Positions 16,315 through 52,729 of a stretch of 64,000 nt of DNA are shown here, piece after piece. Source of the stretch: a virus. Lineage: Duplodnaviria > Heunggongvirae > Uroviricota > Caudoviricetes. The notes below the pieces were generated by a model that was not told the origin of the DNA, searched no databases, and saw nothing but the letters and a program-made list of their open reading frames with translations. The stretch lies in IMG/VR virus record IMGVR_UViG_3300014204_000008, positions 34,837 through 98,836 of that record; one strand, 5' to 3'. The translations under genes were made by a program, and so were the position numbers. Every line of letters starts with the position of its first letter. Within the stretch, counting starts at the first letter, position 1.

Positions 16315-16830
16315 CTATTTATCTCCAAAATATGCGATGATCTTTTCTACAATTTCTTCCGTAATTCCTGTTGCCCATTCCGTTTTGAAGAAGTGAGACA
16401 TCTGCTCAGGAAGCATATCAGAATCATCATCAAGAATAGCATACTCAACTACTTCAGTATGTTCATCTAACCATGCTTTAATCTCTTTTCCACGTTCACA
16501 CTCTTCCGCTCCTCCTGGAATTGGCATATGAGGTGTCTTTCCATAAAGAGGTGCGACGCGTTTCGATACTTCATCCGTAGATTCATCCCAAAGCCTCCAC
16601 GTTGAGCTGAGAACGACTTTAAGATCTGGAACATTGAGGATGATCTTCCCAACGAGAAACGAAAGATATGGATCAATGCCAATGAAACCAGCTGACGTAC
16701 GCTGAACCGTTCTTTTCGAATTTACAACACCATCTACGTCTAGAAAAAGCACCTTTATTCCTTTTTTCTTTTTGTCATCCATAAGAAATCTATTTATAGA
16801 ATTAGTTTCTCTACCATCTCGTCCATCCAA
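16315..16830 (-). CDS. HAD-superfamily hydrolase (putative nucleotidase or polynucleotide phosphatase)
   Basis: VLFLDVDGVVNS carries the HAD motif I DxDG. LSSTWR and ILDDD supply the downstream motifs. Confidence 0.55.
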   Translation of the reverse strand: MDGRDGRETNSINRFLMDDKKKKGIKVLFLDVDGVVNSKRTVQRTSAGFIGIDPYLSFLVGKIILNVPDLKVVLSSTWRLWDESTDEVSKRVAPLYGKTPHMPIPGGAEECERGKEIKAWLDEHTEVVEYAILDDDSDMLPEQMSHFFKTEWATGITEEIVEKIIAYFGDK

Positions 16831-19549: not shown

Positions 19550-19578
19550 ATCATAGCATATATCTCGACACTTGTCAA
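19550..19578 (-). promoter_or_regulatory. sigma70-type promoter, family copy
   Basis: Minus strand reads acTTGACAagtgtcgagatatatgcTATGAT. Confidence 0.55.
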
Positions 19579-20384
19579 GTACCTAACTGTGGATATAATA
19601 CCTTGATAAGTCTTTCTTCTAAAGTTCCTGCATTGTGCAGTTGGCGACAACGTTCTCGTGAGATATCCAAGATCGCTGAAATGTCTCTTCTTGAATACAC
19701 CTTCCCATTGATCGTATAGACGTACCTAGATCTGTTTGTCTTTAAACCAACAGGTGGGTTGATAGTCCATTTAAAATTCTTAGGACCTAATGGCTTCGAA
19801 TCATCTTTTTGGATTAAATAAACTCGTTGATACCCTGTAGCTGATCTATCACCAAATGGATATGATTCGAATGTATCATCTGCAAACTGTACGAAATTCC
19901 ACCATTCCTCAGGAAGACGTTTGATGTGCTTAAGATGTGTCCAGAACTTCCAAAAAGCTGTTCCAGAAAGCCCATGTGTTGTTTTCGAATCCGTATTGCC
20001 ACAACCGCAACTTTGGCTTAAACCCCTTATAATGTTAGATTCTCTAAAGTCTCTAATAATTCCGCAATCACATTTACACTTCCAATATGAATAACCTTGA
20101 GAAGAATTTTTTCCTTTTCTCATTCCAGCCCATGCTAAGACGAGAAGTCTTCCAAATCTCTCACCAACCAAATCTGACCGTCTACATCTCTTAAGAGATT
20201 TTAACTTCAAGCAACCACAGCTACGTTTCGTTCTCGTCTCATACGCATACTTTTTGACATTAAGAACTTTTCCACATTCACATCGACATCGAAGATACCC
20301 ATTACGAGTCGCTTCCCGAAGCACTGTTAAATAGGTTTCCATTTTTCGTCTTTCGCGTGTAGGAATAGAAATAATTTTTGTCAT
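19575..20384 (-). CDS. Cys-rich protein with two CxCxCG ... SCGC modules
   Basis: CRCECGKV ... SCGCL and CKCDCGII ... SCGCG. Confidence 0.5.
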   Translation of the reverse strand: MTKIISIPTRERRKMETYLTVLREATRNGYLRCRCECGKVLNVKKYAYETRTKRSCGCLKLKSLKRCRRSDLVGERFGRLLVLAWAGMRKGKNSSQGYSYWKCKCDCGIIRDFRESNIIRGLSQSCGCGNTDSKTTHGLSGTAFWKFWTHLKHIKRLPEEWWNFVQFADDTFESYPFGDRSATGYQRVYLIQKDDSKPLGPKNFKWTINPPVGLKTNRSRYVYTINGKVYSRRDISAILDISRERCRQLHNAGTLEERLIKVLYPQLGT

Positions 20385-22384: not shown

Positions 22385-24604
22385 CTATTTATCAACAGAT
22401 ACCATCTTCCGTTCTATTGCAGAAAGAACAAGATTTGCGAACGTTGATTCAACAGCTTCTTCGGTACCATCGACGAGCTTCGAGATAACTCGATCTTTCG
22501 ATGAGATAATATTTTTCATAACTTCATCAATCGTTCCTTTTGAAAAAAATTGGTAGACGGAAACTGGATTCTTCTGACCGATACGATGGCATCGTGCTTC
22601 AGCCTGAGAAGCATCAGATGGACACCAGCTAAAATCTAGAAACAATACGATATGTGCATTCGTAAGTGTAATACCTGTATTCGCTGATTTAATCCCACCA
22701 AGAAAGATCTTCTTCTCAGGATCGTTTTGGAATGCTTTTACAATATCTCTACGCTCCTCATCAGCCGTTTCACCTAAGATCGTAACCGCTGAAGATCCAA
22801 AGTATTCACCTAATTGATGGATAGGATCAACAAACGATGAGAAAACGACAATCTTTTCTCCATTTTCGATAACGTCTTCAATAAATGAGATCGCAGATTT
22901 TAACTTTCCAGCAGATGCAATCTGCCGAAGAACGTTGAGCTTCACAAGCTGTTTTGCTTGGAGTGATCGCAACGCCTCTTTCGACGTTTTCTTTTTCTTC
23001 TCAACGAGAAACTTAAAAAGATCTTCTTCGGCCTGGACGTAATCAGCTTTAGCCTCTTCTGATAATTCTACGGGAACAGAGATAAGAGGAAGTTTTTCTG
23101 GAAGGTCGTCTAGAACATCTTCCTTCTTTCGACGTAAGAAGTATGGAGCAATTCTTTTACGCAATTCATCAATATTCGTAGAACCAGAAGAATCCCAACC
23201 GTACATGCCCATATGTCCTCCACAGAACTTTTTAGAAAACGACATCCAGCTTCCCCATTCTTTCGGATGAAGGATGTTCAATGGGACGAACAGCTCCGAT
23301 GGTCTATTCATGACAGGCGTCCCAGACAGAAAGAGAACATGTTCTGATGAACGTGCTAAAAACATCGCTGCTTTTGTACGCCTAGCTGCGAGTGATTTTA
23401 TCATGTGACTTTCATCAAATATGATTGCATCCCATCGAAGAACGGAAATAGGTTCAACGAACTTTCGAAGAAGATCATAGTTCACGATAAAAACATTCTT
23501 TTTCGGATCTCGAAAAACTTTTGATGGCGTCTTGGAATCAATGACAACTGGTTTCAATCTCGTCCACTTCTCAACTTCATCGTACCAGGAATATTTAACC
23601 GTAGCCGGACAAACAACAAGAACACGAGAGAAATTCTCGTGAGCAACGTATGCGAGAGATTGGAGACTCTTACCACAATTATGAACAATAAACCCATTCG
23701 CAATGAAATTCCTATCAGGATCATCCATCACAACATCATAGACATGATGCTTTCCAACACCATCAATAGAGACAATCTCACGAGCAGAACATGCTTCATC
23801 AGAATCTGGAGTAATAGATGATTCCATGAAGACTTCTTCGCCAATAGTCAATGAACTTGCTTCAACCCACTCAACATCATTTCCAAATCTCGCGACAAGA
23901 ACCTTATGATCTGGCGTGAGGATGATGCTCTTCTTCTCTTTCGCAACCTGGACCGTAATACGAATAGCATCTTTCTTCCCCTTGTCTAGAACGTCCATAA
24001 CCTGATTCAAATGAAATGGAAGAACCTTCCCTTCGAGACATGACCGAAGAAAAACCTTCTTTCCATGCCAAGCATCTTTAGAGAATTTCTCATAAAACGA
24101 AGAAAGCTTCATCTCTTCTTTTTTTGCATTCCCAATGAAAACAGAAACGATCGCATCTCCAGAGATACAACCCATTTCGTCCGCTAGGATTGCTCGCCCA
24201 TTCGCATTCAAAAGAAACTCAGTTCCAACGCGTTGATACCCATAGAGTTTCTCACCATTTTTGACATTATTTGGGACAAAATCCGTTTCTTTCTTTTCTT
24301 TCAGATACATAGCCTGATCCTTTCGAACTTCAGCCTCTTGTTGCATCAAATGATTGAGTTTCCATTTATTTCTTACCGTATCCGAAACACTTGTCGTTGG
24401 AAACTTATTCACGATAAGGGCGACAATCTCATACTGAGAAAATCTCCATACCTTGCTCGTTGCATCAAAAGAGAATTCCTTCCAACCATACTTCTCCTTG
24501 ATGAGCCTACAAAAATCCAGAAATACAACTGAAAAAGGGAACTCAAACACTAATTCGTGATAAGCCGTCTTTTCATATCGTATTTCTGGATTTAAGACCG
24601 GCAT
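22385..24604 (-). CDS. SNF2-family helicase interrupted by a mini-intein
   Basis: LYGYQ, ADEMG / CGKSLQ (motif I split), DESH motif II, LSGTP motif III, QAEARCHRIGQ motif VI. Confidence 0.85.
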   Translation of the reverse strand: MPVLNPEIRYEKTAYHELVFEFPFSVVFLDFCRLIKEKYGWKEFSFDATSKVWRFSQYEIVALIVNKFPTTSVSDTVRNKWKLNHLMQQEAEVRKDQAMYLKEKKETDFVPNNVKNGEKLYGYQRVGTEFLLNANGRAILADEMGCISGDAIVSVFIGNAKKEEMKLSSFYEKFSKDAWHGKKVFLRSCLEGKVLPFHLNQVMDVLDKGKKDAIRITVQVAKEKKSIILTPDHKVLVARFGNDVEWVEASSLTIGEEVFMESSITPDSDEACSAREIVSIDGVGKHHVYDVVMDDPDRNFIANGFIVHNCGKSLQSLAYVAHENFSRVLVVCPATVKYSWYDEVEKWTRLKPVVIDSKTPSKVFRDPKKNVFIVNYDLLRKFVEPISVLRWDAIIFDESHMIKSLAARRTKAAMFLARSSEHVLFLSGTPVMNRPSELFVPLNILHPKEWGSWMSFSKKFCGGHMGMYGWDSSGSTNIDELRKRIAPYFLRRKKEDVLDDLPEKLPLISVPVELSEEAKADYVQAEEDLFKFLVEKKKKTSKEALRSLQAKQLVKLNVLRQIASAGKLKSAISFIEDVIENGEKIVVFSSFVDPIHQLGEYFGSSAVTILGETADEERRDIVKAFQNDPEKKIFLGGIKSANTGITLTNAHIVLFLDFSWCPSDASQAEARCHRIGQKNPVSVYQFFSKGTIDEVMKNIISSKDRVISKLVDGTEEAVESTFANLVLSAIERKMVSVDK
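23678..24169 (-). mobile_element. mini-intein (about 164 aa) inside the Walker A motif of the SNF2 helicase
   Basis: CISGDAIV at the N-splice, TPDH block B, VYDVVMDDPDRNFIANGFIVHN at the C-splice followed by +1 Cys. Removal restores DEMGCGKSLQ. Too short to hold a homing endonuclease. Confidence 0.7.
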
Positions 24605-34751: not shown

Positions 34752-35029
34752 ACTCCCCAAATTCTATTAAAGGTCTCTTTCCACTCCCATGTCCACATTG
34801 TGGAGTGATGAACTATGCAGCATTAGAAACTCAGATTCCATCAATCCAAAAGATCTATTCTCAGGAAGAGATTGATATGGCAAAAGAGGAAGTCATGAAT
34901 AGGATTAGAACAAAGAATCTTTCAGAAGAAATCTTATGGAGTATCTCACAAAAGATTTCTGATAAGGATACGTTATTTGCTCCTGAAGACGTTGATAATG
35001 TTGTTGAACAGCTTCTTGCAGAGGTTTAA
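34748..35029 (+). CDS. small protein with CPHCG motif
   Basis: ORF. Confidence 0.45.
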   Translation: MNSPNSIKGLFPLPCPHCGVMNYAALETQIPSIQKIYSQEEIDMAKEEVMNRIRTKNLSEEILWSISQKISDKDTLFAPEDVDNVVEQLLAEV

Positions 35030-38935: not shown

Positions 38936-39384
38936 ACCTCATCATGAAGTCACTGTTATCTTTCTTCATAACTTGTTCCAGTCTGTTCGTTTCTATAACA
39001 AATACTACTGACATTGCACCGCCAGTTGTAGAAACGCCACCGATACAAGTTAGAGAAGAAGAAAAACCTGATCCTATCATGGTGGTTTCTCGCAGAGTTT
39101 CTGCCTATACATCAAGAGAAGAAGAAACGGATTCAACCCCGTGTTTGGCTGCAAATGGAGAAGATATATGTGTTCTTTACTACGAATACGATTCTCTCAC
39201 ATGTGCAGCTAATTTTGTTCCATTTGGAACGATCTTGGATATTCCAGGATATGGAACATGTGTTGTAAGAGATCGTATGGCAAAGAGTAGATGGAACATG
39301 GTAGATATCTACTTCGGACTTGAACTCGATAAGGCGTTAGAATGGGGTGTCAGGACAGTAGATGTTTCAATCAAAGAACCTTAA
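38932..39384 (+). CDS. secreted 3D-domain protein (MltA-like cell-wall binding or lytic domain)
   Basis: Signal peptide, then VSAYTS ... CAANFVPFGTILDIPGYGTCVVRDRMAKSRWNMVDIYF, typical of 3D domains. Confidence 0.55.
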   Translation: MNLIMKSLLSFFITCSSLFVSITNTTDIAPPVVETPPIQVREEEKPDPIMVVSRRVSAYTSREEETDSTPCLAANGEDICVLYYEYDSLTCAANFVPFGTILDIPGYGTCVVRDRMAKSRWNMVDIYFGLELDKALEWGVRTVDVSIKEP

Positions 39385-39385
39385 C

Positions 39386-39715
39386 ATCTTAAGAAGAAGA
39401 ACATGTCTAAGAGGTGGAAGGATTGAGGTCGGCGTGTACCTTAAACACGGTCACTGGCCAGTGGCTTCACCGATGGTACTAATGTACCGATCTACTATCA
39501 CTTAAATTGTTGATGGATCACAAGCCGAAAGGCGATCCATTGATCGTGATTGCTCATTGCAAAACCCTTAACCTCTAAGAAACGAAAGAGGAAATTGGAA
39601 ATCTTTATACACGACACTTGGTATGATCCAGACGTGGGGACCTAGTGTGCGGAACACCCGAAATGCTAAATTTGAAGAAACGAAATCCTACTTACCGAAT
39701 CCTTGCTTCTTAGAC
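39386..39715. repeat. ORF-free structured segment bounded by about 25-bp imperfect inverted repeats
   Basis: Left arm CTTAAGAAGAAGAACATGTCTAAG. Right arm CTTAGACATATTCTTAATCTTAAG. Interior has GAAA-loop hairpins. Confidence 0.45.
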
Positions 39716-39744
39716 ATATTCTTAATCTTAAGAATCCTAATACT

Positions 39745-40056
39745 ATGAAAATCGCCGAAGGACTTTTGCTGCGTAAGCAGCTCGAAGCAAAAGTGAAGCA
39801 GTTGGAACCTTTAAAGCTTAATGGCGAAAACGGTGTTTACGACACAAAGGTCGTACGTCGTAAGGTTTCAGAAGATGTTGATGAGGTCACTCTCCAAAGT
39901 CCTCGTGTCGACATCAAGACTCTTACGAAGGAATACGATGTGTATGCCTCCCGTCTCCGTCGTCTTGATTCAGCAATTCAGAAAGCAAACTGGCAGTTTG
40001 ATCTTGATTTCAGTGAAGAGGTTGAAGTGGTAACATCTGAGGTTGCAACTTCGTAA
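39745..40056 (+). CDS. hypothetical protein
   Basis: ATG 39745 (track start is TTG 39703). Confidence 0.45.
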   Translation: MKIAEGLLLRKQLEAKVKQLEPLKLNGENGVYDTKVVRRKVSEDVDEVTLQSPRVDIKTLTKEYDVYASRLRRLDSAIQKANWQFDLDFSEEVEVVTSEVATS

Positions 40057-40333
40057 ATTCCAGTTTATGGATACGGAAAAGAAGGTGATAAGGCGTGGTG
40101 ATATTTTCAGAGATTCGAAAAAAGAGGAATGGTTTAGAGTTATTGGTATTCTTAGAGAAGGCGGAGAAACAATATTTTTCACAACCATTCCTAGGAAGAC
40201 AGGAGATCTGAAAGAGGAAGATGATTTTCATTCAATCGTTACACTCACCGGTCTCTTGAAAGAAAGATATATTCCTATTGGAAATTTTTATGAAAAAGAG
40301 AATGAAAGAAGAGTTCTCTTTTCTAGAGATTAG
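40043..40333 (+). CDS. hypothetical protein (96 aa)
   Basis: ORF. Confidence 0.4.
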   Translation: MQLRKFQFMDTEKKVIRRGDIFRDSKKEEWFRVIGILREGGETIFFTTIPRKTGDLKEEDDFHSIVTLTGLLKERYIPIGNFYEKENERRVLFSRD

Positions 40334-40351
40334 GGATATAGCTATCTGCTC

Positions 40352-40428
40352 TCTGACGTAGTTCAGCTGGATAGAACAGAGGACTTCTAAGCCTTTAGAC
40401 ATCGGTTCGAACCCGATCGTCAGAACCA
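40352..40428 (+). tRNA. tRNA-Arg (anticodon UCU), CCA encoded
   Basis: 7-bp acceptor TCTGACG/CGTCAGA, D-arm GTTC-AGCTGGATA-GAAC, loop CTTCTAA, T-arm ATCGG-TTCGAAC-CCGAT, ACCA end. Confidence 0.6.
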
Positions 40429-40502
40429 TGGAGTTTATGTCAGTTATTCTCCTATAAAAATATTGATACGGGTTTGGCAGGAACGTATAAAAACTGTCCC
40501 AT

Positions 40503-40576
40503 CGCGGAATGGAGAAATGGCATCTCGTCAGTTTCATAAGCTGAAGTTTCCAGTTCAAATCTGGATTCCGCATCCA
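40503..40576 (+). tRNA. tRNA-Met (anticodon CAU), C1:A72 mismatch, CCA encoded
   Basis: D-arm GAGA-AATGGCA-TCTC, anticodon arm TCAGT-TTCATAA-GCTGA, T-arm TCCAG-TTCAAAT-CTGGA. Could instead be an Ile(LAU) or initiator-type tRNA. Confidence 0.6.
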
Positions 40577-40577
40577 G

Positions 40578-40665
40578 GCAAGCGTATACTGCTAAGGAGG
40601 CAGCGCAGACTGTAAATCTGTTGTCTTAAATGACTCGCTCGGATCGTTCCCGAGAGCTTGCACCA
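40578..40665 (+). tRNA. tRNA-Tyr (anticodon GUA), class II with long variable arm, CCA encoded
   Basis: Anticodon arm GCAGA-CTGTAAA-TCTGT, variable hairpin, T-arm CTCGG-ATCGTTC-CCGAG. Four nt between acceptor and D-stem is unusual. Confidence 0.45.
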
Positions 40666-40666
40666 A

Positions 40667-41024
40667 GGGTCTGATCATATTTCGATAGGTTGCTCATTGA
40701 AAAATTGCAGGACAAGCTGTAGTAACTTGTTAAAAGGCTACGAAATTGTAATTGCCAAAGCTATTGAAAGTCTGAAGTCGTTCTACACTTCGGTGTTTCG
40801 AACCCCTTCATTCGTTGCGTCATTCGTCTAACGAACTGATGCCCGATCATCATGATTTGTTTGTAGGTCATGAATGATCGTCACTTATACAAACTGGTGG
40901 AGAACACAAATCTCACGCTCTGAATGTAGGTACATAGCAGCTCTTGCTTTAAGGAGCTAATCCTGTGAATGAAATTTTTCATATATCAGCCTATACACGG
41001 GAGAATCACCCGTCAGATCCACCA
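40667..41024 (+). ncRNA. ssrA: tmRNA (ssrA), about 358 nt
   Basis: 5' GGGTCTGATCATATTTCGATAGG aligns with the E. coli tmRNA 5' end GGGGCUGAUUCUGGAUUCGACGGG. 3' ACGGGAGAATCACCCGTCAGATCCACCA aligns with GCGGGUUCAACUCCCGCCAGCUCCACCA. Acceptor GGGTCTG/CAGATCC carries the G3:U70 alanine identity pair. A-rich tract, TAA, TT, then GCC is a resume-codon context like E. coli UAG-UC-GCA. Confidence 0.65.
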
Positions 41025-41027
41025 GAG

Positions 41028-41102
41028 AGGAATGTAGCTCAACGGTAGAGCAATTCGCTTATATCGAATAGGTCGTGGGATCGTCACCCACCATTCCTAC
41101 CA
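41028..41102 (+). tRNA. tRNA-Ile (anticodon UAU), CCA encoded
   Basis: Acceptor AGGAATG/CATTCCT, D-arm GCTC-AACGGTA-GAGC, anticodon arm ATTCG-CTTATAT-CGAAT, T-arm GTGGG-ATCGTCA-CCCAC. Confidence 0.55.
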
Positions 41103-41103
41103 T

Positions 41104-41191
41104 CGGCCTGTGATGAAATGGTATACATGGGAGGCTTAGACCCTCTTGCCCTTTATTGGGTTTGCAAGTTCGAATCTTGCCAGACCGACCA
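41104..41191 (+). tRNA. tRNA-Leu (anticodon UAG), class II, CCA encoded
   Basis: Acceptor CGGCCTG/CAGACCG (one mismatch), anticodon arm GGAGG-CTTAGAC-CCTCT, long variable arm, T-arm GCAAG-TTCGAAT-CTTGC. Confidence 0.55.
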
Positions 41192-41321
41192 TCGAAATTT
41201 AAAACATTTCGTATCAACATATGCTTCGTTTTTTGGAAATTCTCTTCGGTCTAGCAGTCGTGACCGCTTGGGTAATACTTCTCGTGAAATATCTTAAATC
41301 GGAAAAGAAGAAAAAATAACT

Positions 41322-42128
41322 ATGAACAAGATTAATCTTATCATTTCTGGTGTCATTGCATTTGCACTTTTAAGCATCATAATGATCCTAAATCCATTTG
41401 CACAGGTTTCAGCTGGTGAGCGTGGAGTTGTTCTAACATGGGGTGCTGCCGGAGATCAGGTTCTTACAGAAGGCCTCCACATGGTCACACCAATCGCTCA
41501 ACATGTTCAGATTGTAGATATTCGAGTTCAGAAGGAACAGGTAGATGTTGCAGCAGCTTCAAAAGATCTCCAGACAGTGAATTCAACAGTTGCTATTAAC
41601 TTTCATCCAGATCCAAGTAAGGTAAACATTCTTTGGAAGACCATTGGTAGTGATTATTCATCTCGAATCATCTCTCCAGTCGTTCAGGAAGGCGTTAAGG
41701 CTGTCACAGCCCGTTATACGGCAGAAGAACTCATTACGAAGCGAGAAGAGGTTCGTGACGGTATCAAGAATATTCTCACTGAACGTTTGAGCTTGAGTAA
41801 CATCCTTATTGATGATTTCTCTATCATGAACTTCTCCTTCTCTAAGGGATTCAATGATGCGATTGAAGCGAAACAGACAGCTGTACAAGATGCATTAACG
41901 GCAGAAAATAAGTTGCGACAAATCAAGGTTGAAGCCGAACAGCGTGTTGCCACAGCTCAGGCAGAAGCTCAAGCTATCAAACTTCAGAGTGATGCCGCGA
42001 ACAATGACAAGTATATCAATTTGAAAGCCCTTGAAGTTCAACTTGAAGCAGTCCATAAATGGAATGGTGTCTTGCCAACACAGATGACACCGAATGGAGC
42101 AGTTCCTTTCCTGAATCTTACGAAATAG
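41322..42128 (+). CDS. SPFH/Band-7 (stomatin/prohibitin-like) membrane protein
   Basis: N-terminal TM, ERGVVLTWG ... GLHMVTP ... IVDIRVQ, then a long coiled-coil tail with AQAEAQAIKLQ, typical of SPFH. Confidence 0.7.
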   Translation: MNKINLIISGVIAFALLSIIMILNPFAQVSAGERGVVLTWGAAGDQVLTEGLHMVTPIAQHVQIVDIRVQKEQVDVAAASKDLQTVNSTVAINFHPDPSKVNILWKTIGSDYSSRIISPVVQEGVKAVTARYTAEELITKREEVRDGIKNILTERLSLSNILIDDFSIMNFSFSKGFNDAIEAKQTAVQDALTAENKLRQIKVEAEQRVATAQAEAQAIKLQSDAANNDKYINLKALEVQLEAVHKWNGVLPTQMTPNGAVPFLNLTK

Positions 42129-44205: not shown

Positions 44206-44415
44206 TAAGAGTCCATATTCCTATGTTCAGTGATGGACGGTGTAGCCCAAAAAAAGAATTGTTTGATAGTTATTATTACTTTTTCGAACGGGATACCTCA
44301 TACGTTCCCTAAACATGTTGAGTGTTAGAGAAGTTGCAACTTCTCTCTCGCTTTCTGCTTTAATATGAATATACCTGGCGTTATATGCATAATGTGGCAG
44401 AAAGCGGGTAAACCT

Positions 44416-44790
44416 ATGAAATCTAGATCCACTCGACCAAAGAGAAGTAAAACCTTCCCTCAACTCCTTTCGAAGAAGAAAGTTTCTAAACGCCTTAATA
44501 GGCATGTTGCATCAAAACTCCGTCGTAGGATCTACGTTGAACAGGCTGGAAAATGTTTCTACTGCGGTTGCGAATGTATCCCTACAGATAACAAAAAGAT
44601 AAGATTTGAAGACCAACCAGATAATCTTTTTACCATTGACCACATCTTTCCAATATCAGCCGGTGGAAGCAATCGCTATGCGAACTTATTAGGTAGCTGT
44701 AGGAAGTGCAATGAAGAAAAAGGAAAAACGACAGATTTGGCGACATTTCTTCTCAAGAAGAAAGAAGAAAGGTCGACCCTTGACAAGTGA
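44416..44790 (+). CDS. HNH endonuclease
   Basis: CFYCGCEC ... DHIFPISAGGSN ... CRKCNEEKG is the canonical HNH motif. Start ATG 44416 or 44365. Confidence 0.6.
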   Translation: MKSRSTRPKRSKTFPQLLSKKKVSKRLNRHVASKLRRRIYVEQAGKCFYCGCECIPTDNKKIRFEDQPDNLFTIDHIFPISAGGSNRYANLLGSCRKCNEEKGKTTDLATFLLKKKEERSTLDK

Positions 44791-44867: not shown

Positions 44868-44905
44868 AGAACTTATCCCTTGGCTTAATTGCTGAGGGAT
44901 TTGTT
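44868..44905 (+). terminator. intrinsic terminator (ATCCCT ... AGGGAT then TTGTTTTTT)
   Basis: Hairpin plus T-run about 60 nt downstream of the promoter, convergent with the end of the giant - strand gene. Confidence 0.45.
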
Positions 44906-47900
44906 TTTTATGAACGAGTTGATGGCTCCGAAATACTTCTCAACGATTGGTTCGATCTGAGTGATAATACCCATGTAGCGATAAACATCCTCTTCGCGCT
45001 TTGCCCCTTCATAGCTTGAATAGTTCCTATTCATATCAGGTCTCGTGACAAGGTGGTATCCAATACGAAGGAGCTGATCTTCTGAGAGACCACTTCCATT
45101 TATCATATAGTCTTCAAAGACTTTATCCATGATCTTTTCAGATTCTCCAGCAAGTTTACCGGTTTCCATATTGTAGTCTCTACTGAACTCTTTCTCATCA
45201 AAAACTTCACCCTTCTCTTGGGCGGCTCTTCGCGCCTTATCCATGACAACGGAACGCGCTTTACGTCGCGCTTGGCGAGAAGCGTTGATGTTCGCGGCCA
45301 TCTTTACAATGTGAGATTCAGGCGTGCCAGAAGTAATCTTAAAGAAGTCCTCACCTTTTTCTTCAATAAGTGATTTCTTTACTTCCTGTGCCGCAAAAAG
45401 GTCTGCGGCGTTCTGGGCCTTGATATCTGTACGCTCAATTGGTTTTAAACCTCTGAACTGATCCAGTATCTCAAAGAATGGCGTCAACTTCCCATCGGCT
45501 GCATTGATTCGATCATTGAGGTTAAAGATTTTCTCTAAAGAATACACGAGATCAGATGTCGATTCCAGGGTATTCTTTTCTTCGTCGACGAGTTGAAATG
45601 CCGTCTGGAAGTCTCGAAGCTCTTTAGAAATCTTCAGGATCTCCTTCTTCGTCGTAACTCCAAAAAGATGTGAGATGAGAACTTGGTTCGCATCCTGAAG
45701 ACCTGTTTCCTTCAATCGACGTTCAAAGTCTCCATAGGTAACACCATCAACGGTCTCCTGTGCCAATTGACCAACGAAACGCGGATCGTTCTTCATATTC
45801 GAAGCAACAGGAAGATTCGAATCTCTTACTTGAGAGAGAATGCGACCTATTCCTTGTGCCTGACCAACGCCTTTCCCAGAATTCACTGCGGCATTTACCG
45901 TATAGCGAACACCTTGATCAGTCATTTCGATTGGCTTCTCTCCAGCTCCTTCTCCGAATTTCGTAAGAGGATCAAGAACAATATCTTTATCACTCTTACG
46001 CTGTGTTTCAATATAGTCAGCGTATTCCTCAGGAATGCCTCTCCCCTGGAGTTCATGCCCCTTCCCATAGATAGGGAAGACTTCATAAGCATCTCCATCA
46101 AAGTCGAACTCTTTTCGGACATATCCATCATATGCAGAAGTGATAATCGTGCCTTTTTTCACCTTCATTCCAAAGTCCTCAGCAATAACAACGTCTGCTT
46201 TTGCAAGAGCCGTAAGTCTCGTGATAGGTTGGCGAATGGAAACAACACTCGTTGGTTTTCCGATGCGCTCCCAGTCTGCACGAGAAAGCATGATTTCATT
46301 TGGCTTCAGATAGAGGTTCTTTGCCTGTTCCTTAAGGAACGTTTTTCCATAATCACTTAGACGGTTTGCCTTATCAGCGTCTTCAAGAACATCTACAATT
46401 CTATAGATATCTGCTTGATCGTCTAAGAGGTATCGAGCGTCTTTCTCTGAAAGAACGCTGTCACCAAATAACTCATTGAAATGAGTTCGTAACGTTCCTA
46501 CTTTGTCCTTTACTTCTTTTGACTTTGCGAATGTCACGAGTTCTGCGACATGAGCGAAGTGACCAAGGTCTTCTTTCTTTGGATGATTTGCAACTTCAGA
46601 AATCTTCAAAGCCCCTTTTGAAGCAAGATCTGGTTGAACGTAATTGTAGGTAGATTCTCCTAAGAATCTTCCTGACATGATCTTTGATTGGAAAGCTTTT
46701 GCGATATTCTCTTCAAGTTTCTTTTCAATAAACATGTCTGGCGTATCCGAGCGACTGAGGAGCTGATTCATCTTCTCCCAATCTGCACTATCAATTTCTC
46801 CAACAAGGTCTATACCAAATTTCTCTTTGAATTTCGTATTAGCCTCTCGAATAACCTCACGTATCGGTGTCCCGTTTTTCTTTGCTTCTCGAATCGAGGA
46901 GAAGAGATCTGTGTAATCCTTGATTGGTTCTGAGAAGCGTTCCGTGAAAGCTTTATTTACAACAGGATCATTTGAAGCTCGTGAGTAGATAGAAGCAGCA
47001 GCCTTTGGCTTTGTAACCGCTTTCTTTGGGACAACCTTTGCGTGCCAAGATGAAGAAGGCGTCGTGCCTCCAACAATCCCATCTCCCATATCTTCAAGAA
47101 GTCCTAACCCAATTTTAACATTCTCTGAAGAGCCAACGATCGAGAACTTATCAAGAGGTTTCCCAATACGTCGTTCGAAAGAACGTTGCATGTGCTCAGG
47201 CATTGGATAGAATTGACCTTTGATGATTGCTGTTCCACTTCCAGTGTTCCAGACAAGGTTAGATTTGATATATCCAAGAGATGGGTCAGAATTCATTGCC
47301 TTCAAGAGAAGTTTAAATCCTTCTTCGGGAATGAAGTTCGCTCCATCCATAATATCTTTTCCATTAATCCCATCAAGAACCTTTGTACGCTTCACACTTT
47401 CCGTTGGGAGTTGGAGCATGTTCTCATCGACAAGCCCAAGTTCTCCCATTTTCTTTCCTGGAAAAACGAAGAGTGGCATCTGAACTTCATTCCCCTTTTC
47501 ATCTCGAAGATCGAGTTTTGGTTCAGAAAAGTTGAGAATGCTTGTACGCTTGTTGAGCTTACCGAAATTCGAAGCTGTTTTCTGATCAAGACCTACGACA
47601 TTCTGATAGAAAGAAACTCTAAATCGCTCACTTGGCGTCATCTTTTCAGCACCTTCGCCCGTATACATGTTTGCAAGCTTCTCGTTGTATTTTACCAAAA
47701 TCGTATTCTTAATGTTGTTTCCAGCAATACCAATAACCACGTAACTGTCCTTTTCAGCACGTCCACTATTAACGATATCAAGAACTGCTTGATAGGCATC
47801 ATCTGATTTTGTTTCAACCAAGCCATCTGTCTCATAACGCTTCAATTCAATCTTTCCAATATCTGGATTTCTTGATGTGAAGTCTTCAATGAGTCTATCT

Positions 47901-50900
47901 GTAGGACTCTTTGATTTCATGGTTAACGTTTCAACATCTTCTTGGATTTTACCGTTCTTTACTTGGAAGGCTTCACGTGGTTTCGCATCAATAATTCTTC
48001 GAAGAAGAACTTTAAAATCATTCTTCGTAGCCTCATTTGAAAAGAGTGATGGGAGTTCAACATCGTACTTTTCAGAAAAGTCTTTTGTACTCGTTTCCAT
48101 TGATTCGATAAGCTCGTCCATTGCTTTATGAGAATCTCCGCCATTCTTCTCTCGAAGCTGCTGTAATCTCTTTTGGATATTCTCTCTGGAAAAACTATTC
48201 TTTCTTTCTTCAAGAGCAGATATCGTTTTCCCGAAATGGGACAACTGTTCACGCTGGTCCTCTGTAAGAGTTCTATTCCCGTTCTCAGAAAAGAACTTGT
48301 TACGCAAGTCATTACGCTTTGCAATGATCTCTTTCTGCTTAGAAGAGAAAACAATGGTAGAGAGTTCTAATTTTCCATTCTTAAGTGTACGAGCATCGCT
48401 TGGAGATGTAAGTGATACGTCTTGCGTATCAAATGGTCTATTCGTTGTAAGCTCATCAGAAAGAGCAATCCTTTCCTCTACGGTAGGATTTCGTACAAGT
48501 TCAACGCCAAGAGATTCTGCTGCTTTCTTTTCAACAGGGGTCTGAACAAAAGATTCTTCATTTCGTGTGACAATCTCTGCTTCACCCTTTTCAGGAACGT
48601 ATTTAACATTCTTTCCTTCCTTGATTGCGGAAAGCTGATCTCGTACCTCCAAAGGTAAAGATTCAGGGATGTTTTCCTTCGTTTTCGGTTCTATCTGCTG
48701 TCTAACTGGTTCTTGTACCTTAGGTGGTTCCTCTATAGGAACTATGCGTGGCTCCGCGACAGTTTGCTTAACTTGAGGCTCTGATACCATCTGTGAGGCT
48801 CTAGGAGCCTCTATGACAGGTTCTTGTGGCAAAATTGGCGTCTGTACCTCTTGTTTAATTAGAAGGCTCTCAGTGGCCATTTTAGGCGTTTCAGGTGGTA
48901 TTGTGGTATCTGATACTATTTCAGGAACAGGAAGGCTCTCAGGGGCCATTTTGGCCTCTACAGGAGCTTCTACTGGGACATCTGAAGGCTTTTGAATAGC
49001 TGTCTCTTTAACAGTTCTCTTAGACCCAAGAAGTGGAAGATCGAGAAAATGACCAAGAAGAGGGCTTTGAACGAATTCAGAGGTACGAAGAATACCGCTT
49101 ACAATTCTTGCCTGATCAGAAATTGCTTGAATGTTTGCCGTTCCAGAAGAGATGCCATCTTCGAGTACCGAAAGAAGATCACGGAGAGAGACTGAATCTC
49201 CCTTAGCGATGATCTCTCCAGCTCTTTCTGGTGACAGAATTTCTCCGTAACGTTTTGAGATCTTTGAGACAAGATCATCAGCACTCTTACTTCCAGCAGC
49301 TTCAGAGAAGAATGAGAAAACTTCTTCACCGTCTTTTATCCTTTGGATGAATGCTTCAGAATATTCTTCTGGGTTATTAAAAACCTTATCGAGCATCTCA
49401 TATGAAGGCTCGATGTCCATCTTCTGTTTTAATGTATCTACGAAACGTTTTGAATCCTCAGGTCCAGTAAGAGCACGAGCACGTGCCATAAGTTCCATCG
49501 GTGAATGAACCTCTGAACCAGACTTTGTTCCTTCGAATAGTTGCTGAGTCTTCGAAATGCCATCTTCGGTAATAGCAATTTTAAACCAACGTTTTCCTTC
49601 CTCTGCACCCATTTCTCGAATATCTCCAACCATGGCACCAACGTTTTGGTCATCCATCCATCTTGAAAGAGTATCCTTGTCTAAGTTGAGCTGTTCTCCT
49701 TGATAGTTCTTCCAGCGATCATCTTTTGTTCCTAAGGAACCAACAAGTTCTTCCGTTTTCTCATTCATTCGATCGAGGACTTTCTTTGATGGCATCATCC
49801 CAACCTTCACCCAAGAAACAGTTCCATCGACTTCCTTATGTGGAACATAAACAGAAATGACTGAATCTGGGTTAGATTCAATATCTTTTGTTGCACGTTC
49901 TTCAGGTGTGTACTGGCTTCGACGTAGAGTTTCTTTTGTTCCCTGACCAGGAGATCTTATTAAGAGTGCTCTTGTTCCACGATTTCCGTTTACCTTTGCG
50001 TCTTGAAGAAGTTGCCACTGGCGTTCAGTCATGCTCCATTCTCCACCAGTCGTTTGGAATACACCTGTAGGACTGTCGACTGGAACGATGGACGGATCTG
50101 CTGAACGTGTTGCCGTTGAATCAACATTTTCAAAGAAGATATTCTTTGCTTCATTTGCCGTTAAACGAAGTGACGGATCGGCAGTAGCCTGGCCATTATT
50201 TAACATTCTTTGAAGAAGAACGCTCCATGACTGGAGATCCTGTAAAAGCATCCTATCAGATTCAACAGGATTCTTCGTTGTTGATTCCAAGAATCGAAGT
50301 GATGTATCAAGTTGTCTTGTCACTAAAGACAAATCCTCTTCACTCCAAATAGGGTTTCCATTTTTATCTACATTCTTTTCTGCCGTTTCTTTCCATTTAT
50401 TCGTCCCTTCAATCCGCAATTTAACCAAAGCTTCTGAAGAAAGATCCTTCCCAGCGTAATATTCAGTTGGTTTAAAGTTTTCGAATTTACCAGGATTTGG
50501 GAACATCTCTGGATTAACAGCATGAAGATTTACGGCAGCAGCGAACTTCATTCGGTCATCAAGTCTAACAAGAAGTTGATTCTGGAGAGATGCTTGTTTC
50601 TCTGCGTAAACCGTCTTCATTGCCTGTTGAACGAATGGTGATTTTTCAATAATATCACGTTCTGAAGCTGAAAACGTTGGCTTTGTTCCAGCATCAGCCA
50701 CTTTAGCTTGCTTAATATATTTTCCTACAACATCCACACCTTTTTCACGGGTTCTAATTTCTTTCGTATGTCCTAGACCATGAAGAGCTGTAAGCATCAA
50801 AGCATTCTGAAGAATGCCCATGACATCTCCTTCAGAAGATTCATCCTTCATATTGAATCCCTGCTCCATCGAAGCCAAAACAGCACCTTTGCCAAAGACC

Positions 50901-52729
50901 TTCATGTAACCAGGAATGTTATGTGCATCCATTCCAAAAGCAGCACCATTAACAGAGTCCCACATAACTCTATTCATCGTTGCTCCAAGAGAGCGGTCAT
51001 CTTGTTGATGGAGAAGCCCGTGAACAACCATGAGTCCAATATTTTCCATTTGAGCATTCCACTTCAAAGCTCGCATCGTGTCTCCAAACGCTTCACCAAT
51101 CATTGGAACTTTAGCCGTCTTCACATCAGTCCAAGCCCATGGAGCTGCTTCAAAAATACGAGCCGTTGGTCCTGGTTTCTCGACAGCAGCTACAGCCGCC
51201 TTTGCTGCTTTTAAGGTATTACGAGCTGCAACATTTCCTATAGGGGATGAACCAAATTTCTCAAATGCCTTTTGCTTTAATCCTGCAGCAACGGCACTGA
51301 TGCCAATTGGTCCTTTTGCAGCAGCTTCTCCGATACTCTTCGTAATTCTTCCTATTTTTGTAGGTTCAATAAATTCAGCTGCTTTGCCAAGTTTTGTTGC
51401 ATAACCTACTTTCGTAGCAACCTTTGCTAGTCCACCAGTGACGATAAACGAAGCAAGAAAACCGAGCGTTGATCCTACGGCGTTTCCAACTTGTCCTGCG
51501 ATTTTATTCTGTTCAGCGTATTGGCTTTTCCAATATGGAGCATCGCTTGCTTTTGCAGCTTCTTCCCAATTTGTAGAACCTAATTTTCCATATCCAAAAG
51601 TAAGTTCTGTCCCAAAGCCACGAGTAGCTTCAGATAGAAAAGGTGTGACAACGGGCTTCTGACCGAAAATAGGTAAGGATTCTACCTTCTTAGACATCCA
51701 GTCGCCCACAATCTTTCCCGCAGCACCCATTTCTTTCGGGACTTGTTTCAATGTTTCGAAAAATGATGGCTGCTTATATGTTTTCCAAGCTTTCCAAGCA
51801 TTTGCAGCCTGTTCAATGGAAATAACTCCAGTATCATCTGGAGTAGATAAGTCGGTATCTGAATAGTTTTTCCAATCCGTGAGTGCAAGCTGGGCTTCAC
51901 CTAATTGAATCGGATCTACACCATACTTTTTAAGTTCTTCTGGATTGTCTCTAGACGCTCTCCAAAGTGTATATGGAACAGATTGAATCTTCGTTTTCTT
52001 CTCATGCTCCTGGTTCGTGAGGAGCTGCATGTTCGAGATATCGTCTGCTCCACCCATTGAAAGCGGAAGTGCATGGTCAACTTGATAAAGTGCTGGATCT
52101 CTTCCTTGTAAAACCTTTGCTTTTATACTCGCAGCCTGAGAAGCGTTTCGAATAGTATGGATCAAGCCACCTGGTTGAGATGGATCTGTAAGGTAATAGG
52201 CTCCACTAGCCTGGGAAATTGGATTTCCCTGATTATCAACATTCGAAGACGGGACTTCTCTTACTTGAGCTTGATCTGTTGGATTCACCCAACCTAATCC
52301 TGGATTCGCAGGAGCAATATCCATTGGACCTTCTTGTCTTCCGGCTTGAAACTGAGAGAGTGGTTGTTGTGATCCTGGGAAAGATGAAGGGGCGATGTTT
52401 TGACCAGTCTCGAATGCCACTGGAGTAAGTTGATCAAAACGAGTTGAAGGATCTTCCGCTGGCGGCGTAAAACTCGATTTCATTCCAGCATTAAAAGATG
52501 GAGTAGGGACTGTACTCATCTTTGTTCTTTGTTGTGCAACAAGAACTTTCAATGCTGCTAACAGTTGTTTTGAATCAGGAATACCGTAAGACTGGTCCTT
52601 TGCCTTTTGGGAAGGGACAACATTAGCCAATCTCGCCTTCTCTTTTGCCGTTAATTTCTGGCGAGAAGAGTACGATGTATTTTGAGTTATATTAGCCATG
52701 TTAGAAGGAATACATGAAAGAATTTCCAA
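44885..52729 (-). CDS. giant virion-associated protein (2614 aa), putative tape-measure or ejected polyvalent protein, with N-terminal HNH-like motif
   Basis: Single uninterrupted ORF. YQVDHALPLSMGGADDISNMQLLTNQEH (His-Me finger-like) near residue 215. Gly/Ala-rich amphipathic segments (GLAKVATKVGYATKLGKAAE ...). PQ/PE-rich low-complexity linker. Large helical C-terminal region. Last gene of the tail operon. Confidence 0.75.
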   Translation of the reverse strand: MEILSCIPSNMANITQNTSYSSRQKLTAKEKARLANVVPSQKAKDQSYGIPDSKQLLAALKVLVAQQRTKMSTVPTPSFNAGMKSSFTPPAEDPSTRFDQLTPVAFETGQNIAPSSFPGSQQPLSQFQAGRQEGPMDIAPANPGLGWVNPTDQAQVREVPSSNVDNQGNPISQASGAYYLTDPSQPGGLIHTIRNASQAASIKAKVLQGRDPALYQVDHALPLSMGGADDISNMQLLTNQEHEKKTKIQSVPYTLWRASRDNPEELKKYGVDPIQLGEAQLALTDWKNYSDTDLSTPDDTGVISIEQAANAWKAWKTYKQPSFFETLKQVPKEMGAAGKIVGDWMSKKVESLPIFGQKPVVTPFLSEATRGFGTELTFGYGKLGSTNWEEAAKASDAPYWKSQYAEQNKIAGQVGNAVGSTLGFLASFIVTGGLAKVATKVGYATKLGKAAEFIEPTKIGRITKSIGEAAAKGPIGISAVAAGLKQKAFEKFGSSPIGNVAARNTLKAAKAAVAAVEKPGPTARIFEAAPWAWTDVKTAKVPMIGEAFGDTMRALKWNAQMENIGLMVVHGLLHQQDDRSLGATMNRVMWDSVNGAAFGMDAHNIPGYMKVFGKGAVLASMEQGFNMKDESSEGDVMGILQNALMLTALHGLGHTKEIRTREKGVDVVGKYIKQAKVADAGTKPTFSASERDIIEKSPFVQQAMKTVYAEKQASLQNQLLVRLDDRMKFAAAVNLHAVNPEMFPNPGKFENFKPTEYYAGKDLSSEALVKLRIEGTNKWKETAEKNVDKNGNPIWSEEDLSLVTRQLDTSLRFLESTTKNPVESDRMLLQDLQSWSVLLQRMLNNGQATADPSLRLTANEAKNIFFENVDSTATRSADPSIVPVDSPTGVFQTTGGEWSMTERQWQLLQDAKVNGNRGTRALLIRSPGQGTKETLRRSQYTPEERATKDIESNPDSVISVYVPHKEVDGTVSWVKVGMMPSKKVLDRMNEKTEELVGSLGTKDDRWKNYQGEQLNLDKDTLSRWMDDQNVGAMVGDIREMGAEEGKRWFKIAITEDGISKTQQLFEGTKSGSEVHSPMELMARARALTGPEDSKRFVDTLKQKMDIEPSYEMLDKVFNNPEEYSEAFIQRIKDGEEVFSFFSEAAGSKSADDLVSKISKRYGEILSPERAGEIIAKGDSVSLRDLLSVLEDGISSGTANIQAISDQARIVSGILRTSEFVQSPLLGHFLDLPLLGSKRTVKETAIQKPSDVPVEAPVEAKMAPESLPVPEIVSDTTIPPETPKMATESLLIKQEVQTPILPQEPVIEAPRASQMVSEPQVKQTVAEPRIVPIEEPPKVQEPVRQQIEPKTKENIPESLPLEVRDQLSAIKEGKNVKYVPEKGEAEIVTRNEESFVQTPVEKKAAESLGVELVRNPTVEERIALSDELTTNRPFDTQDVSLTSPSDARTLKNGKLELSTIVFSSKQKEIIAKRNDLRNKFFSENGNRTLTEDQREQLSHFGKTISALEERKNSFSRENIQKRLQQLREKNGGDSHKAMDELIESMETSTKDFSEKYDVELPSLFSNEATKNDFKVLLRRIIDAKPREAFQVKNGKIQEDVETLTMKSKSPTDRLIEDFTSRNPDIGKIELKRYETDGLVETKSDDAYQAVLDIVNSGRAEKDSYVVIGIAGNNIKNTILVKYNEKLANMYTGEGAEKMTPSERFRVSFYQNVVGLDQKTASNFGKLNKRTSILNFSEPKLDLRDEKGNEVQMPLFVFPGKKMGELGLVDENMLQLPTESVKRTKVLDGINGKDIMDGANFIPEEGFKLLLKAMNSDPSLGYIKSNLVWNTGSGTAIIKGQFYPMPEHMQRSFERRIGKPLDKFSIVGSSENVKIGLGLLEDMGDGIVGGTTPSSSWHAKVVPKKAVTKPKAAASIYSRASNDPVVNKAFTERFSEPIKDYTDLFSSIREAKKNGTPIREVIREANTKFKEKFGIDLVGEIDSADWEKMNQLLSRSDTPDMFIEKKLEENIAKAFQSKIMSGRFLGESTYNYVQPDLASKGALKISEVANHPKKEDLGHFAHVAELVTFAKSKEVKDKVGTLRTHFNELFGDSVLSEKDARYLLDDQADIYRIVDVLEDADKANRLSDYGKTFLKEQAKNLYLKPNEIMLSRADWERIGKPTSVVSIRQPITRLTALAKADVVIAEDFGMKVKKGTIITSAYDGYVRKEFDFDGDAYEVFPIYGKGHELQGRGIPEEYADYIETQRKSDKDIVLDPLTKFGEGAGEKPIEMTDQGVRYTVNAAVNSGKGVGQAQGIGRILSQVRDSNLPVASNMKNDPRFVGQLAQETVDGVTYGDFERRLKETGLQDANQVLISHLFGVTTKKEILKISKELRDFQTAFQLVDEEKNTLESTSDLVYSLEKIFNLNDRINAADGKLTPFFEILDQFRGLKPIERTDIKAQNAADLFAAQEVKKSLIEEKGEDFFKITSGTPESHIVKMAANINASRQARRKARSVVMDKARRAAQEKGEVFDEKEFSRDYNMETGKLAGESEKIMDKVFEDYMINGSGLSEDQLLRIGYHLVTRPDMNRNYSSYEGAKREEDVYRYMGIITQIEPIVEKYFGAINSFIKNKSLSN

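Follow-up and report, generated by a model that had tools for sequence, protein, structure and literature searches.

An atypical tmRNA gene in a phage lineage without described relatives

Phage-encoded transfer-messenger RNAs (tmRNAs, the products of ssrA genes) are already known. Those listed earlier belong to Bxz1-like mycobacteriophages and Bacillus phage G (PMC4131195), and a survey with ARAGORN identified tmRNA genes in 402 of 18,146 phage genomes (2.3%), non-jumbo phages included, with two-piece forms in marine myophages (PMC9004378). The common pattern in these cases (Bxz1-like phages and phage G, as well as the two-piece tmRNAs of Melnitz and the pelagimyophages) is a complete ssrA gene in a lytic-looking phage, usually accompanied by phage tRNA genes; the role of the RNA in infection is unproven, and none of the catalogued phage tmRNAs has a demonstrated role. 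Mycobacteriophage DS6A encodes little more than the tRNA-like domain of a tmRNA, and a molecule that resembles it is a strong inhibitor of tmRNA, possibly through titration of SmpB (PMC4131195). Here, we analyse a tmRNA gene that occupies positions 40667–41024, on the plus strand, of a 64,000-nucleotide (nt) stretch of phage DNA (Caudoviricetes; positions 34,837 to 98,836 of the IMG/VR record IMGVR_UViG_3300014204_000008; hereafter, the window).

This gene follows the pattern of the known phage tmRNAs in that it is a complete ssrA gene among the tRNA genes of a lytic-looking phage but, unlike them, it has a non-canonical T-loop and tag end, is missed by ARAGORN, the tool of the published survey, at default settings, and shows no sequence similarity to any GenBank phage record. 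As in DS6A, a tmRNA-derived tRNA-like domain, potentially a binder of SmpB, is borne by a phage, but in the window RNA, the body, with its mRNA-like part and pseudoknots, is retained whole. What is new is a lineage without described relatives, a variant elbow of the tRNA-like domain, the end of the tag, and a reduced region of pseudoknots 3 and 4 (PK3/PK4). These variant features are in part missed by standard pipelines, and nothing known is overturned. An initial annotation of the window, made from the sequence alone, had considered tmRNA genes to be rare in phages and carried by a few jumbo phages, a view that understates the survey figures given above.

The window RNA is a genuine one-piece tmRNA, and its family identity is secure. 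The search against Rfam 15 with cmscan yields a match to the tmRNA family RF00023 at 40667–41024 on the plus strand, with a score of 63.8 bits (E = 1.4e-22), which exceeds the curated gathering score (47 bits); the match covers the entire model (positions 1–374 of 374), and a restricted search of 39800–41800 returns it identically. Its boundaries coincide with those that the initial annotation had proposed for the gene, the presence of which is thus borne out by the covariance model. Such a full-length, collinear gene leads us to reject a two-piece (permuted) form. The fold is strand-specific: on the plus strand, the minimum free energy (MFE) is −110.8 kcal/mol compared to −83.8 ± 5.2 for shuffled sequences (z = −5.16; none of the 100 shuffles is as good), whereas on the minus strand, z = −1.06. 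The acceptor stem, the T-arm, helix 2 and helix 5 are all recovered in the MFE fold. ARAGORN, which the initial annotation had suggested as a check, does not reproduce the call at its default settings. Only when its threshold is lowered to 80% (-ps80) does it place a tmRNA at 40667–41024, with the tag AKAIESLKSFYTSVFRTPSFVASFV, and this relaxed setting is unreliable, since it reports 47 'tmRNAs', all of them spurious, in 14 unrelated bacterial loci. Because of these false calls on unrelated DNA, we take the Rfam match as evidence and discount the relaxed ARAGORN call.

Anatomy of the RNA

The gene has all the core structural and coding elements of a tmRNA. Its architecture is that of the bacterial one-piece tmRNAs, such as E. 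coli ssrA, and its length is similar (358 vs 363 nt). The features shared with E. coli-type tmRNAs are the G3:U70 pair, the ACCA end, the T-arm, the long helix 2, pseudoknot 1 (PK1), U-A at positions −5/−4 before a GCN codon, a short ORF with its stop codon in the loop of helix 5, and pseudoknot 2 (PK2). Unlike in E. coli ssrA, the PK3/PK4 region consists of three hairpins, the gene belongs to a phage tRNA operon, and there is no adjacent smpB gene. The pairings were checked by a script on the sequence, and every helix that was defined (helices 1, 2a–c and 5, PK1, PK2, and the T-arm) is fully paired.

In the tRNA-like domain, the 5′ strand of the acceptor stem, GGGUCUG (40667–40673), forms seven of the seven possible pairs with 41014–41020, G3 (40669) being paired with U70 (41018). 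The 3′ strand, CAGAUCC, is followed by the discriminator A and an encoded CCA (41014–41024 altogether, with ACCA at 41021–41024). The T-arm, ACGGG/AGAAUCA/CCCGU (40997–41013), has five of five stem pairs, closed by G53-C61, and a 7-nt loop at 41002–41008, and the D-loop analogue AUCAUAUUUCG occupies 40674–40684. The initial annotation had recognized the acceptor stem with its alanine identity pair as well as a T-arm-like hairpin and UCCACCA at the 3′ end, all of which hold. Its alignment of the first 23 nt with E. coli ssrA stands only in part, with about 16 of the 23 positions identical and one gap.

Helix 2, the link between the tRNA-like domain and the body, comprises 23 base pairs, 8 + 9 + 6 in its three segments, which are all the possible ones and all standard; its 5′ strand (40685–40712) consists of segments 2a AUAGGUUG, 2b UGAAAAAUU and 2c GCAGGA, and its 3′ strand spans 40961–40994. 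In PK1 (40712–40742), ACAAG/CUUGU is interleaved with UGUAGU/GCUACG in the H-type order, with 5/5 and 6/6 pairs; this element aligns to the PK1 helix of Rfam and ends 11 nt before the resume codon. Helix 5 (40817–40842; GCGUCA-UUCG/UCUAA/CGAA-C-UGAUGC) is a 10-base-pair hairpin (6 + 4 pairs) with a five-base loop that corresponds to the stop-codon hairpin of Rfam. It is followed by PK2 (40844–40894), where CGAUCAU.AUGA/UCAU..AUGAUCG, with 7 + 4 pairs, is interleaved with GUUUGUA/UACAAAC, with 7 pairs, all of them standard. The usual place of PK3 and PK4 is taken by three plain hairpins, GUGGAGA/UCUCAC, AUGU/ACAU and AGCUCUU/AGGAGCU (40897–40958); pseudoknot pairing was looked for across this segment, and none was found. 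Pseudoknots 2–4 of tmRNAs are variable and, in some lineages, dispensable.

Resume codon and peptide tag

The tag frame starts with the resume codon GCC (40754–40756), runs without disruptions through 25 codons, and ends with the stop codon UAA (40829–40831). The GCC codon is immediately preceded by a single-stranded stretch, GAAAUUGUAAUU, the last five bases of which are U(−5) A(−4) A U U. The Rfam alignment sets this codon on the consensus resume codon GCa, and the location of the UAA in the loop of helix 5 also matches the Rfam consensus. The U-A at −5/−4 corresponds to U85/A86 of E. coli, so that A(−4) is the counterpart of A86, which is the most conserved upstream base and the mutation of which destroys activity (PMC2481249). 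The initial annotation had pointed to the A-rich tract followed by UAA, UU and GCC, and to a candidate frame that starts at this GCC and ends in ...SFVASFV before UAA. The frame read here is the same one, and both PK1 and the resume codon, on which that annotation had made the identification depend, are present in the right context.

The end of the tag, ...PSFVASFV, is not of the usual (L/V)AA or A-(L/V)-A-A degron type; compared with the E. coli tag, this one is long, and its 25 residues end with ASFV rather than with the canonical end of ANDENYALAA. Bacteria survive with a degradation-deficient tag, and it is rescue, not proteolysis, that is essential (PMC8012679), so a tag without the (L/V)AA end is compatible with a useful tmRNA. 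Given that this end is normally used in recognition of the ClpXP type, we speculate that the selected activity is the release of ribosomes rather than fast proteolysis. With a tag so unlike a ClpXP degron, this tmRNA allows rescue to be told apart from proteolysis.

A variant tRNA elbow

The T-loop AGAAUCA differs from the common UUC..A pattern at positions 54, 55, 56 and 58; the corresponding sequence is UUCAACU in E. coli ssrA and UUCRANY in tRNAs. The D-loop analogue is likewise atypical in that it lacks GG, with UA in the place where E. coli ssrA (AUUCUGGAUUCG) has GG. The T-loop of tmRNAs has been described as 'highly conserved', with U341/U342 present in most of them, and the only two departures listed come from the Reclinomonas mitochondrion and Caulobacter (PMC1168896). 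Both the conserved T-loop (U54 U55 C56 ... A58) and the D-loop GG are thus missing from the window tmRNA. These sequences are a conserved feature that does not decide family membership, and the Rfam score is still above the threshold. The AGAAUCA loop is the probable cause of the failure of default ARAGORN.

Other RNAs of the same cluster also carry A54/U58, the reverse of the near-universal U54/A58: in addition to the tmRNA, this combination is present in tRNA-Ile (AUCGUCA) and in a candidate tRNA-Tyr (AUCGUUC), and the other three tRNAs have canonical T-loops. Among 124 tRNA calls in all the sequences analysed, with duplicate copies counted, only one further gene shows A54/U58, namely, a tRNA-Asn (AUCGUAA) at 768–842 of the 279-kb viral contig L032.

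The tRNA-like domain recurs in jumbo phages

The 50,697 phage records of GenBank contain no sequence similar to the tmRNA or to its cluster by megablast and blastn, and nothing relevant was retrieved from them by tblastn with the adaptor protein of the phage, by blastn with the 34-nt T-arm, or by blastn with the tmRNA of contig L047 (see below). Judged by DNA and by the adaptor protein, the phage represents a lineage without a GenBank relative. The SbcC protein has zero relatives in IMG/VR and a single one among 5.8 billion proteins, on contig L045, which is 32% identical and is encoded in the same order of genes, SbcD-RuvC-x-SbcC...Band_7. The 19 loci with Band_7 neighbours (at most 57% identical) contain no tmRNA and share scant gene order with the window.

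In IMG/VR, the 5′ 19-mer of the tmRNA has zero matches. The 3′ 16-mer has 21, all of them due to chance or to phage tRNA-Ala genes in which the acceptor stem is identical, and a gapped acceptor-to-acceptor pattern has two, both chance matches in coding DNA. The scans of metagenome and bacterial-genome contigs with GGAGAATCACC-N8-TCCACCA produced 8 and 14 matches, respectively, all by chance, and are uninformative on relatives or on a bacterial source because the true spacing is N7. The window acceptor stem, GGGUCUG/CAGAUCC with G3:U70, was also observed in tRNA genes, presumably for tRNA-Ala, on the IMG/VR contigs L026, L032 and L034 (129–283 kb). When the T-arm was kept and the acceptor stem was left free, a single IMG/VR contig was recovered, L047 (IMGVR_UViG_3300021426_002908, from sheep rumen), and a D-loop-based pattern and a looser T-arm pattern each led to L047 again and to nothing else.

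L047 contains a 375-nt tmRNA-like RNA (1215–1589) that scores 26.6–31 bits with Rfam, below the RF00023 threshold, and shares its tRNA-like domain with the window RNA. The T-loop AGAAUCA is identical in 7 of 7 positions, the 5′ end in 16 of 20, and the 3′ end in 24 of 27; the D-loop, UUCAUAACUCG, has UCAUA in common with that of the window; and G3:U70, ACCA, and the UAA-N2-GCN resume context are present as well. The differences at the 3′ end are compensatory pairs (U-A in the window RNA vs C-G in L047 at 4:69, and C-G vs G-C, respectively, at 50:64). In contrast, over the rest of the molecule, the two RNAs are at the background level of similarity (~50% identical overall). The tags also differ: the tag of L047, ANRTSRTARKATRLVA, has an ending of the canonical type, and the tags of the jumbo-phage relatives end with RLVA or RLAA, as opposed to ASFV in the window.

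Through the 128-residue gene upstream of the L047 tmRNA, a phage family from gut and rumen was reached, with contigs of up to 262 kb. The RNA of the L047 type (hereafter, A-type) is present in nine of these (L047, L071–L075 and L079–L081), with either 0 or 5 substitutions relative to L047 (98.7% identity), whereas the adjoining gene is only 78–88% identical in DNA across the same contigs. The A-type gene belongs to phages of ~220–260 kb, as opposed to the ~99 kb of the window phage, and is followed downstream by a large tRNA array. At this one conserved locus, between the 128-residue open reading frame (ORF) and the tRNA array, three types of tmRNA occur across the family (L047, L070–L081 and L087–L089). 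The B-type has the canonical D-loop GG and the T-loop UUCGAAG or UUCGAGG, and scores 61.3 bits in L070; the C-type has the T-loop GGCAGAA and scores 37.8 bits. Both the A-type and the C-type score below the Rfam gathering score. The segment that codes for the tag is nonetheless ~90% identical among the three types (ANRTSRTARKATRLVA or ...RLAA). The flanking gene of L070 is the closest to that of L047 (90%), yet L070 carries a B-type RNA. The type of tmRNA therefore does not track the similarity of the flanking gene, which implies that the tRNA-like domain and the body have been exchanged independently of the flank and suggests modular replacement of tmRNAs at this locus. The more divergent relatives L087–L089 have the B-type and C-type only and no further tRNA-like domain similar to that of the window.

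An alignment of the acceptor and T arms of the window, A-, B- and C-type and E. coli tmRNAs, from which one loop base of the B-type was removed to keep the register, shows pairing in 60 of 60 cells, and 6 of the 12 pairs have double compensatory changes; slid controls are each ~40–55% paired. The G3:U70 pair is invariant in all five RNAs. The odd tRNA-like domain of the window RNA, as judged from these comparisons, does not look like a product of decay, given that it recurs nearly unchanged on L047. The occurrence of nearly the same domain in two phage tmRNAs that are not related in other respects is a hint of modular exchange or of common selection acting on the elbow.

The tRNA cluster

The tmRNA gene is located inside a six-gene tRNA operon of the phage, all on the plus strand. 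The cluster begins with tRNA-Arg(UCU) at 40352–40428 (Rfam tRNA score 61.1 bits), followed by tRNA-Met(CAU) at 40503–40576 (54.4 bits) and a candidate class-II tRNA-Tyr(GUA) at 40578–40665; downstream of the tmRNA are tRNA-Ile(UAU) at 41028–41102 (64.8 bits) and tRNA-Leu(UAG) at 41104–41191 (47.7 bits), the last gene of the cluster. ARAGORN calls all of these, the Tyr candidate with -ps80 only. The latter is called neither by default ARAGORN nor by the Rfam tRNA model at E ≤ 1, and, in its cloverleaf, the D-arm is weak and positions 7:66 form a G.A mismatch. Hence, of the two neighbours that the initial annotation had assigned to the tmRNA, tRNA-Ile is solid, and tRNA-Tyr is a sub-threshold candidate. 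The spacers around the tmRNA are 1 nt (to the Tyr candidate) and 3 nt (to tRNA-Ile), which points to one precursor that is processed like a tRNA operon. A scan for sigma-70 promoters and terminators across 39300–41500 gave nothing above the shuffled expectation on the plus strand.

The tRNA-Met(CAU) has a C1.A72 mismatch atop its acceptor stem in the ARAGORN drawing. Such a mismatch is a hallmark of bacterial initiator tRNAs, the anticodon stem of which usually has three consecutive G-C pairs; in this tRNA, the anticodon stem is without three consecutive G-C pairs, and it could alternatively be a tRNA-Ile2 precursor.

Probable function and alternative explanations

From the features described above, the window RNA is probably a genuine phage tmRNA that serves in ribosome rescue. 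In this scheme, RNase P and the processing of the 3′ end would release the tmRNA from the tRNA precursor, with the CCA already encoded. The host AlaRS would charge it with alanine through G3:U70, and the host SmpB and EF-Tu would bring it to ribosomes that have stalled, in the course of infection, on mRNAs that are broken or have no stop codon. Translation would resume at GCC, adding the charged alanine and AKAIESLKSFYTSVFRTPSFVASFV, that is, a 26-residue extension, and termination at UAA would free the ribosome. The 'control over trans-translation' that the initial annotation granted to the phage would thus depend on the host SmpB, AlaRS and EF-Tu, because no SmpB gene was found in the ~79 kb searched.

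The likely benefit is that translation is kept running under RNA damage from the phage's own host shut-off or from RNA-cleaving defences of the host, because the phage carries, besides its own tRNAs, two genes of RNA repair. One encodes an RtcB RNA ligase (13366–14592, minus strand; Pfam PF01139, 365.9 bits; PHROG 1075, 'tRNA splicing ligase', E = 5e-119), and the other, ~1.7 kb away, an HAD domain of the 'Swiss Army Knife' RNA-repair proteins (HAD_SAK_2; 16315–16830, minus strand; Pfam PF18143, 90.8 bits). Taken with the phage tRNAs and tmRNA, these look like a kit of counter-measures against RNA damage, and we infer a functional link of RtcB and HAD_SAK to the tmRNA. With an atypical complete tmRNA, RtcB, HAD_SAK and private tRNAs, the window phage is a compact candidate for trans-translation under RNA cleavage.

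Several observations weigh against ribosome rescue by this RNA. The function is deduced from the sequence, and expression, charging and tagging are predictions. The Rfam threshold is exceeded by only 17 bits, and default ARAGORN reports four tRNAs in the window and no tmRNA. The changes at T-loop positions 54, 55, 56 and 58 and in the D-loop GG affect the conserved tRNA elbow and may affect the compatibility with SmpB and the ribosome. The tag end ...ASFV matched no degron among those testable. SmpB was not detected by tblastn, with a single and insensitive E. coli SmpB query, in the window and its 14.6-kb flanks, i.e., in ~79 of the ~99 kb. Finally, L045, the sole relative of the phage found, is without tRNA or tmRNA genes, so conservation within the lineage lends no support, and the RNA cluster is an accessory acquisition.

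The altered elbow also lends itself to a different interpretation, under which the RNA is a decoy that binds and titrates the host SmpB (or AlaRS, or EF-Tu) and inhibits host trans-translation, with the elbow blocking productive use on the ribosome. Both loops are off the conserved consensus, and the tRNA-like domain of DS6A provides a precedent (PMC4131195). However, a decoy needs the tRNA-like domain only, whereas the window RNA keeps PK1, the A(−4) context, an open frame of 25 codons and the stop codon in the loop of helix 5; moreover, the tag segment of the A-type is ~90% identical to those of its sister types that have different tRNA-like domains, which argues for use of the message. We therefore regard a decoy as unlikely. 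The same peculiarities, that is, the modest Rfam score, the silence of default ARAGORN, the non-canonical tag end, and a PK3/PK4 region reduced to hairpins, along with the absence of the gene from the one distant relative found, would be expected of a decaying or inactive copy that was picked up with the tRNA cluster and persists passively, with no role. Such a copy would hardly retain helices that are all paired, a fold with z = −5.16, and a frame without disruptions; the G+C content of the gene, 41%, is close to the ~40% of the phage, which argues against recent raw capture, and the tRNA-like domain is common to a strongly conserved jumbo-phage tmRNA, with compensatory differences. On balance, decay appears quite improbable. 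The ssrA gene is a frequent integration site of phages and genomic islands, which carry its 3′ end, and ssrA fragments in prophages have been discussed (PMC9004378), so the locus might be a remnant of integration into the ssrA of a host, as an attP or attL fragment, and not a gene of the phage. This is highly implausible for a full-length gene with its own 5′ end that is tightly embedded between tRNAs (spacers of 1 and 3 nt). Phage genes extend over tens of kilobases on both sides, so that the gene lies neither at a prophage junction nor in host DNA, and there is no integrase among the annotated genes of the window and its ~15-kb flanks, where the annotation covered some of the ORFs.

A rival explanation that concerns the origin of the odd tRNA-like domain is that it was copied from the tmRNA of an uncharacterized host lineage and that both phages captured it from such hosts. 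Indeed, similarity between phage tmRNAs and those of host lineages is frequent (PMC9004378), and we consider this origin conceivable, if doubtful: only two departures from U341/U342 are listed (PMC1168896), and the A54/U58 combination is common to three RNAs of the cluster (the tmRNA, tRNA-Ile and the Tyr candidate), as though something acted on the phage's own RNAs. Taking these observations together, we tentatively propose, as a reading less likely than not to hold, that the window RNA and the A-type belong to a phage-borne subclass of tmRNAs with a rebuilt elbow (AGAAUCA and a D-loop without GG), the tRNA-like domain of which moves as a module among unrelated phage tmRNAs. The elbow would be selected to escape a recognizer of canonical T-loops (a host T-loop nuclease, a modification, or quality control) or to fit a particular SmpB, and the tag would uncouple rescue from proteolysis of the ClpXP type. 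If so, the subclass would be largely invisible to standard annotation, given that the window gene escapes default ARAGORN and the A-type escapes Rfam. At one jumbo-phage locus, three different tRNA-like domains are joined to the same tag, and a related change, A54/U58, is present in tRNA-Ile and the Tyr candidate of the window. Regardless of this proposal, the frequency of tmRNAs in phages is probably underestimated because surveys with default ARAGORN would miss the window gene, and the Rfam cut-off misses its nearest structural relative.

Gene content of the phage

The phage is not a jumbo phage: its genome, from a landfill metagenome, spans at least ~99 kb. The identical sequence is present in independent assemblies, namely, Logan SRR6484787 (100% identity over 20.8 kb) and a 98,854-bp contig of ENA ERZ27247350 (k141_2421725), and fragments are also found in the IMG metagenome 3300035208 (a landfill leachate well). 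The G+C content is ~40% throughout. The window encodes recombination proteins (SbcD, a RuvC-like protein, SbcC and RecA) and replication proteins (a DnaB-like helicase, a replication initiator and a primase-like protein), with which the tmRNA gene is co-oriented. Also encoded are an SNF2 helicase with a putative intein, a phiEco32-type COOH-NH2 ligase, and structural and related proteins (an SU10-type adaptor, tail-fibre-like proteins and an M23 peptidase). Where the block of structural genes begins, a short way downstream of the RNA cluster, an ORF of 2,614 residues (44885–52729, minus strand) has zero matches in Pfam or PHROG.

In the SNF2-type helicase (22385–24604, minus strand), an intein-splicing domain is indicated with 29.3 bits (E = 8.5e-7), below the Pfam cut-off of 35.8 bits. 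Just outside the window are an SU10/P22-type portal gene and, next to it, the gene of a 929-residue protein that contains an intein with a LAGLIDADG domain (502–3291 of L085); the phage genes on the two sides of the tmRNA include a terminase with an intein. HNH endonuclease genes are located at 19575–20384 and 44365–44790 of the window. A group I intron (Rfam, 53.5 bits) was observed near a Band_7 gene of an unrelated 57-kb viral contig (9057–9272 of L005, minus strand).

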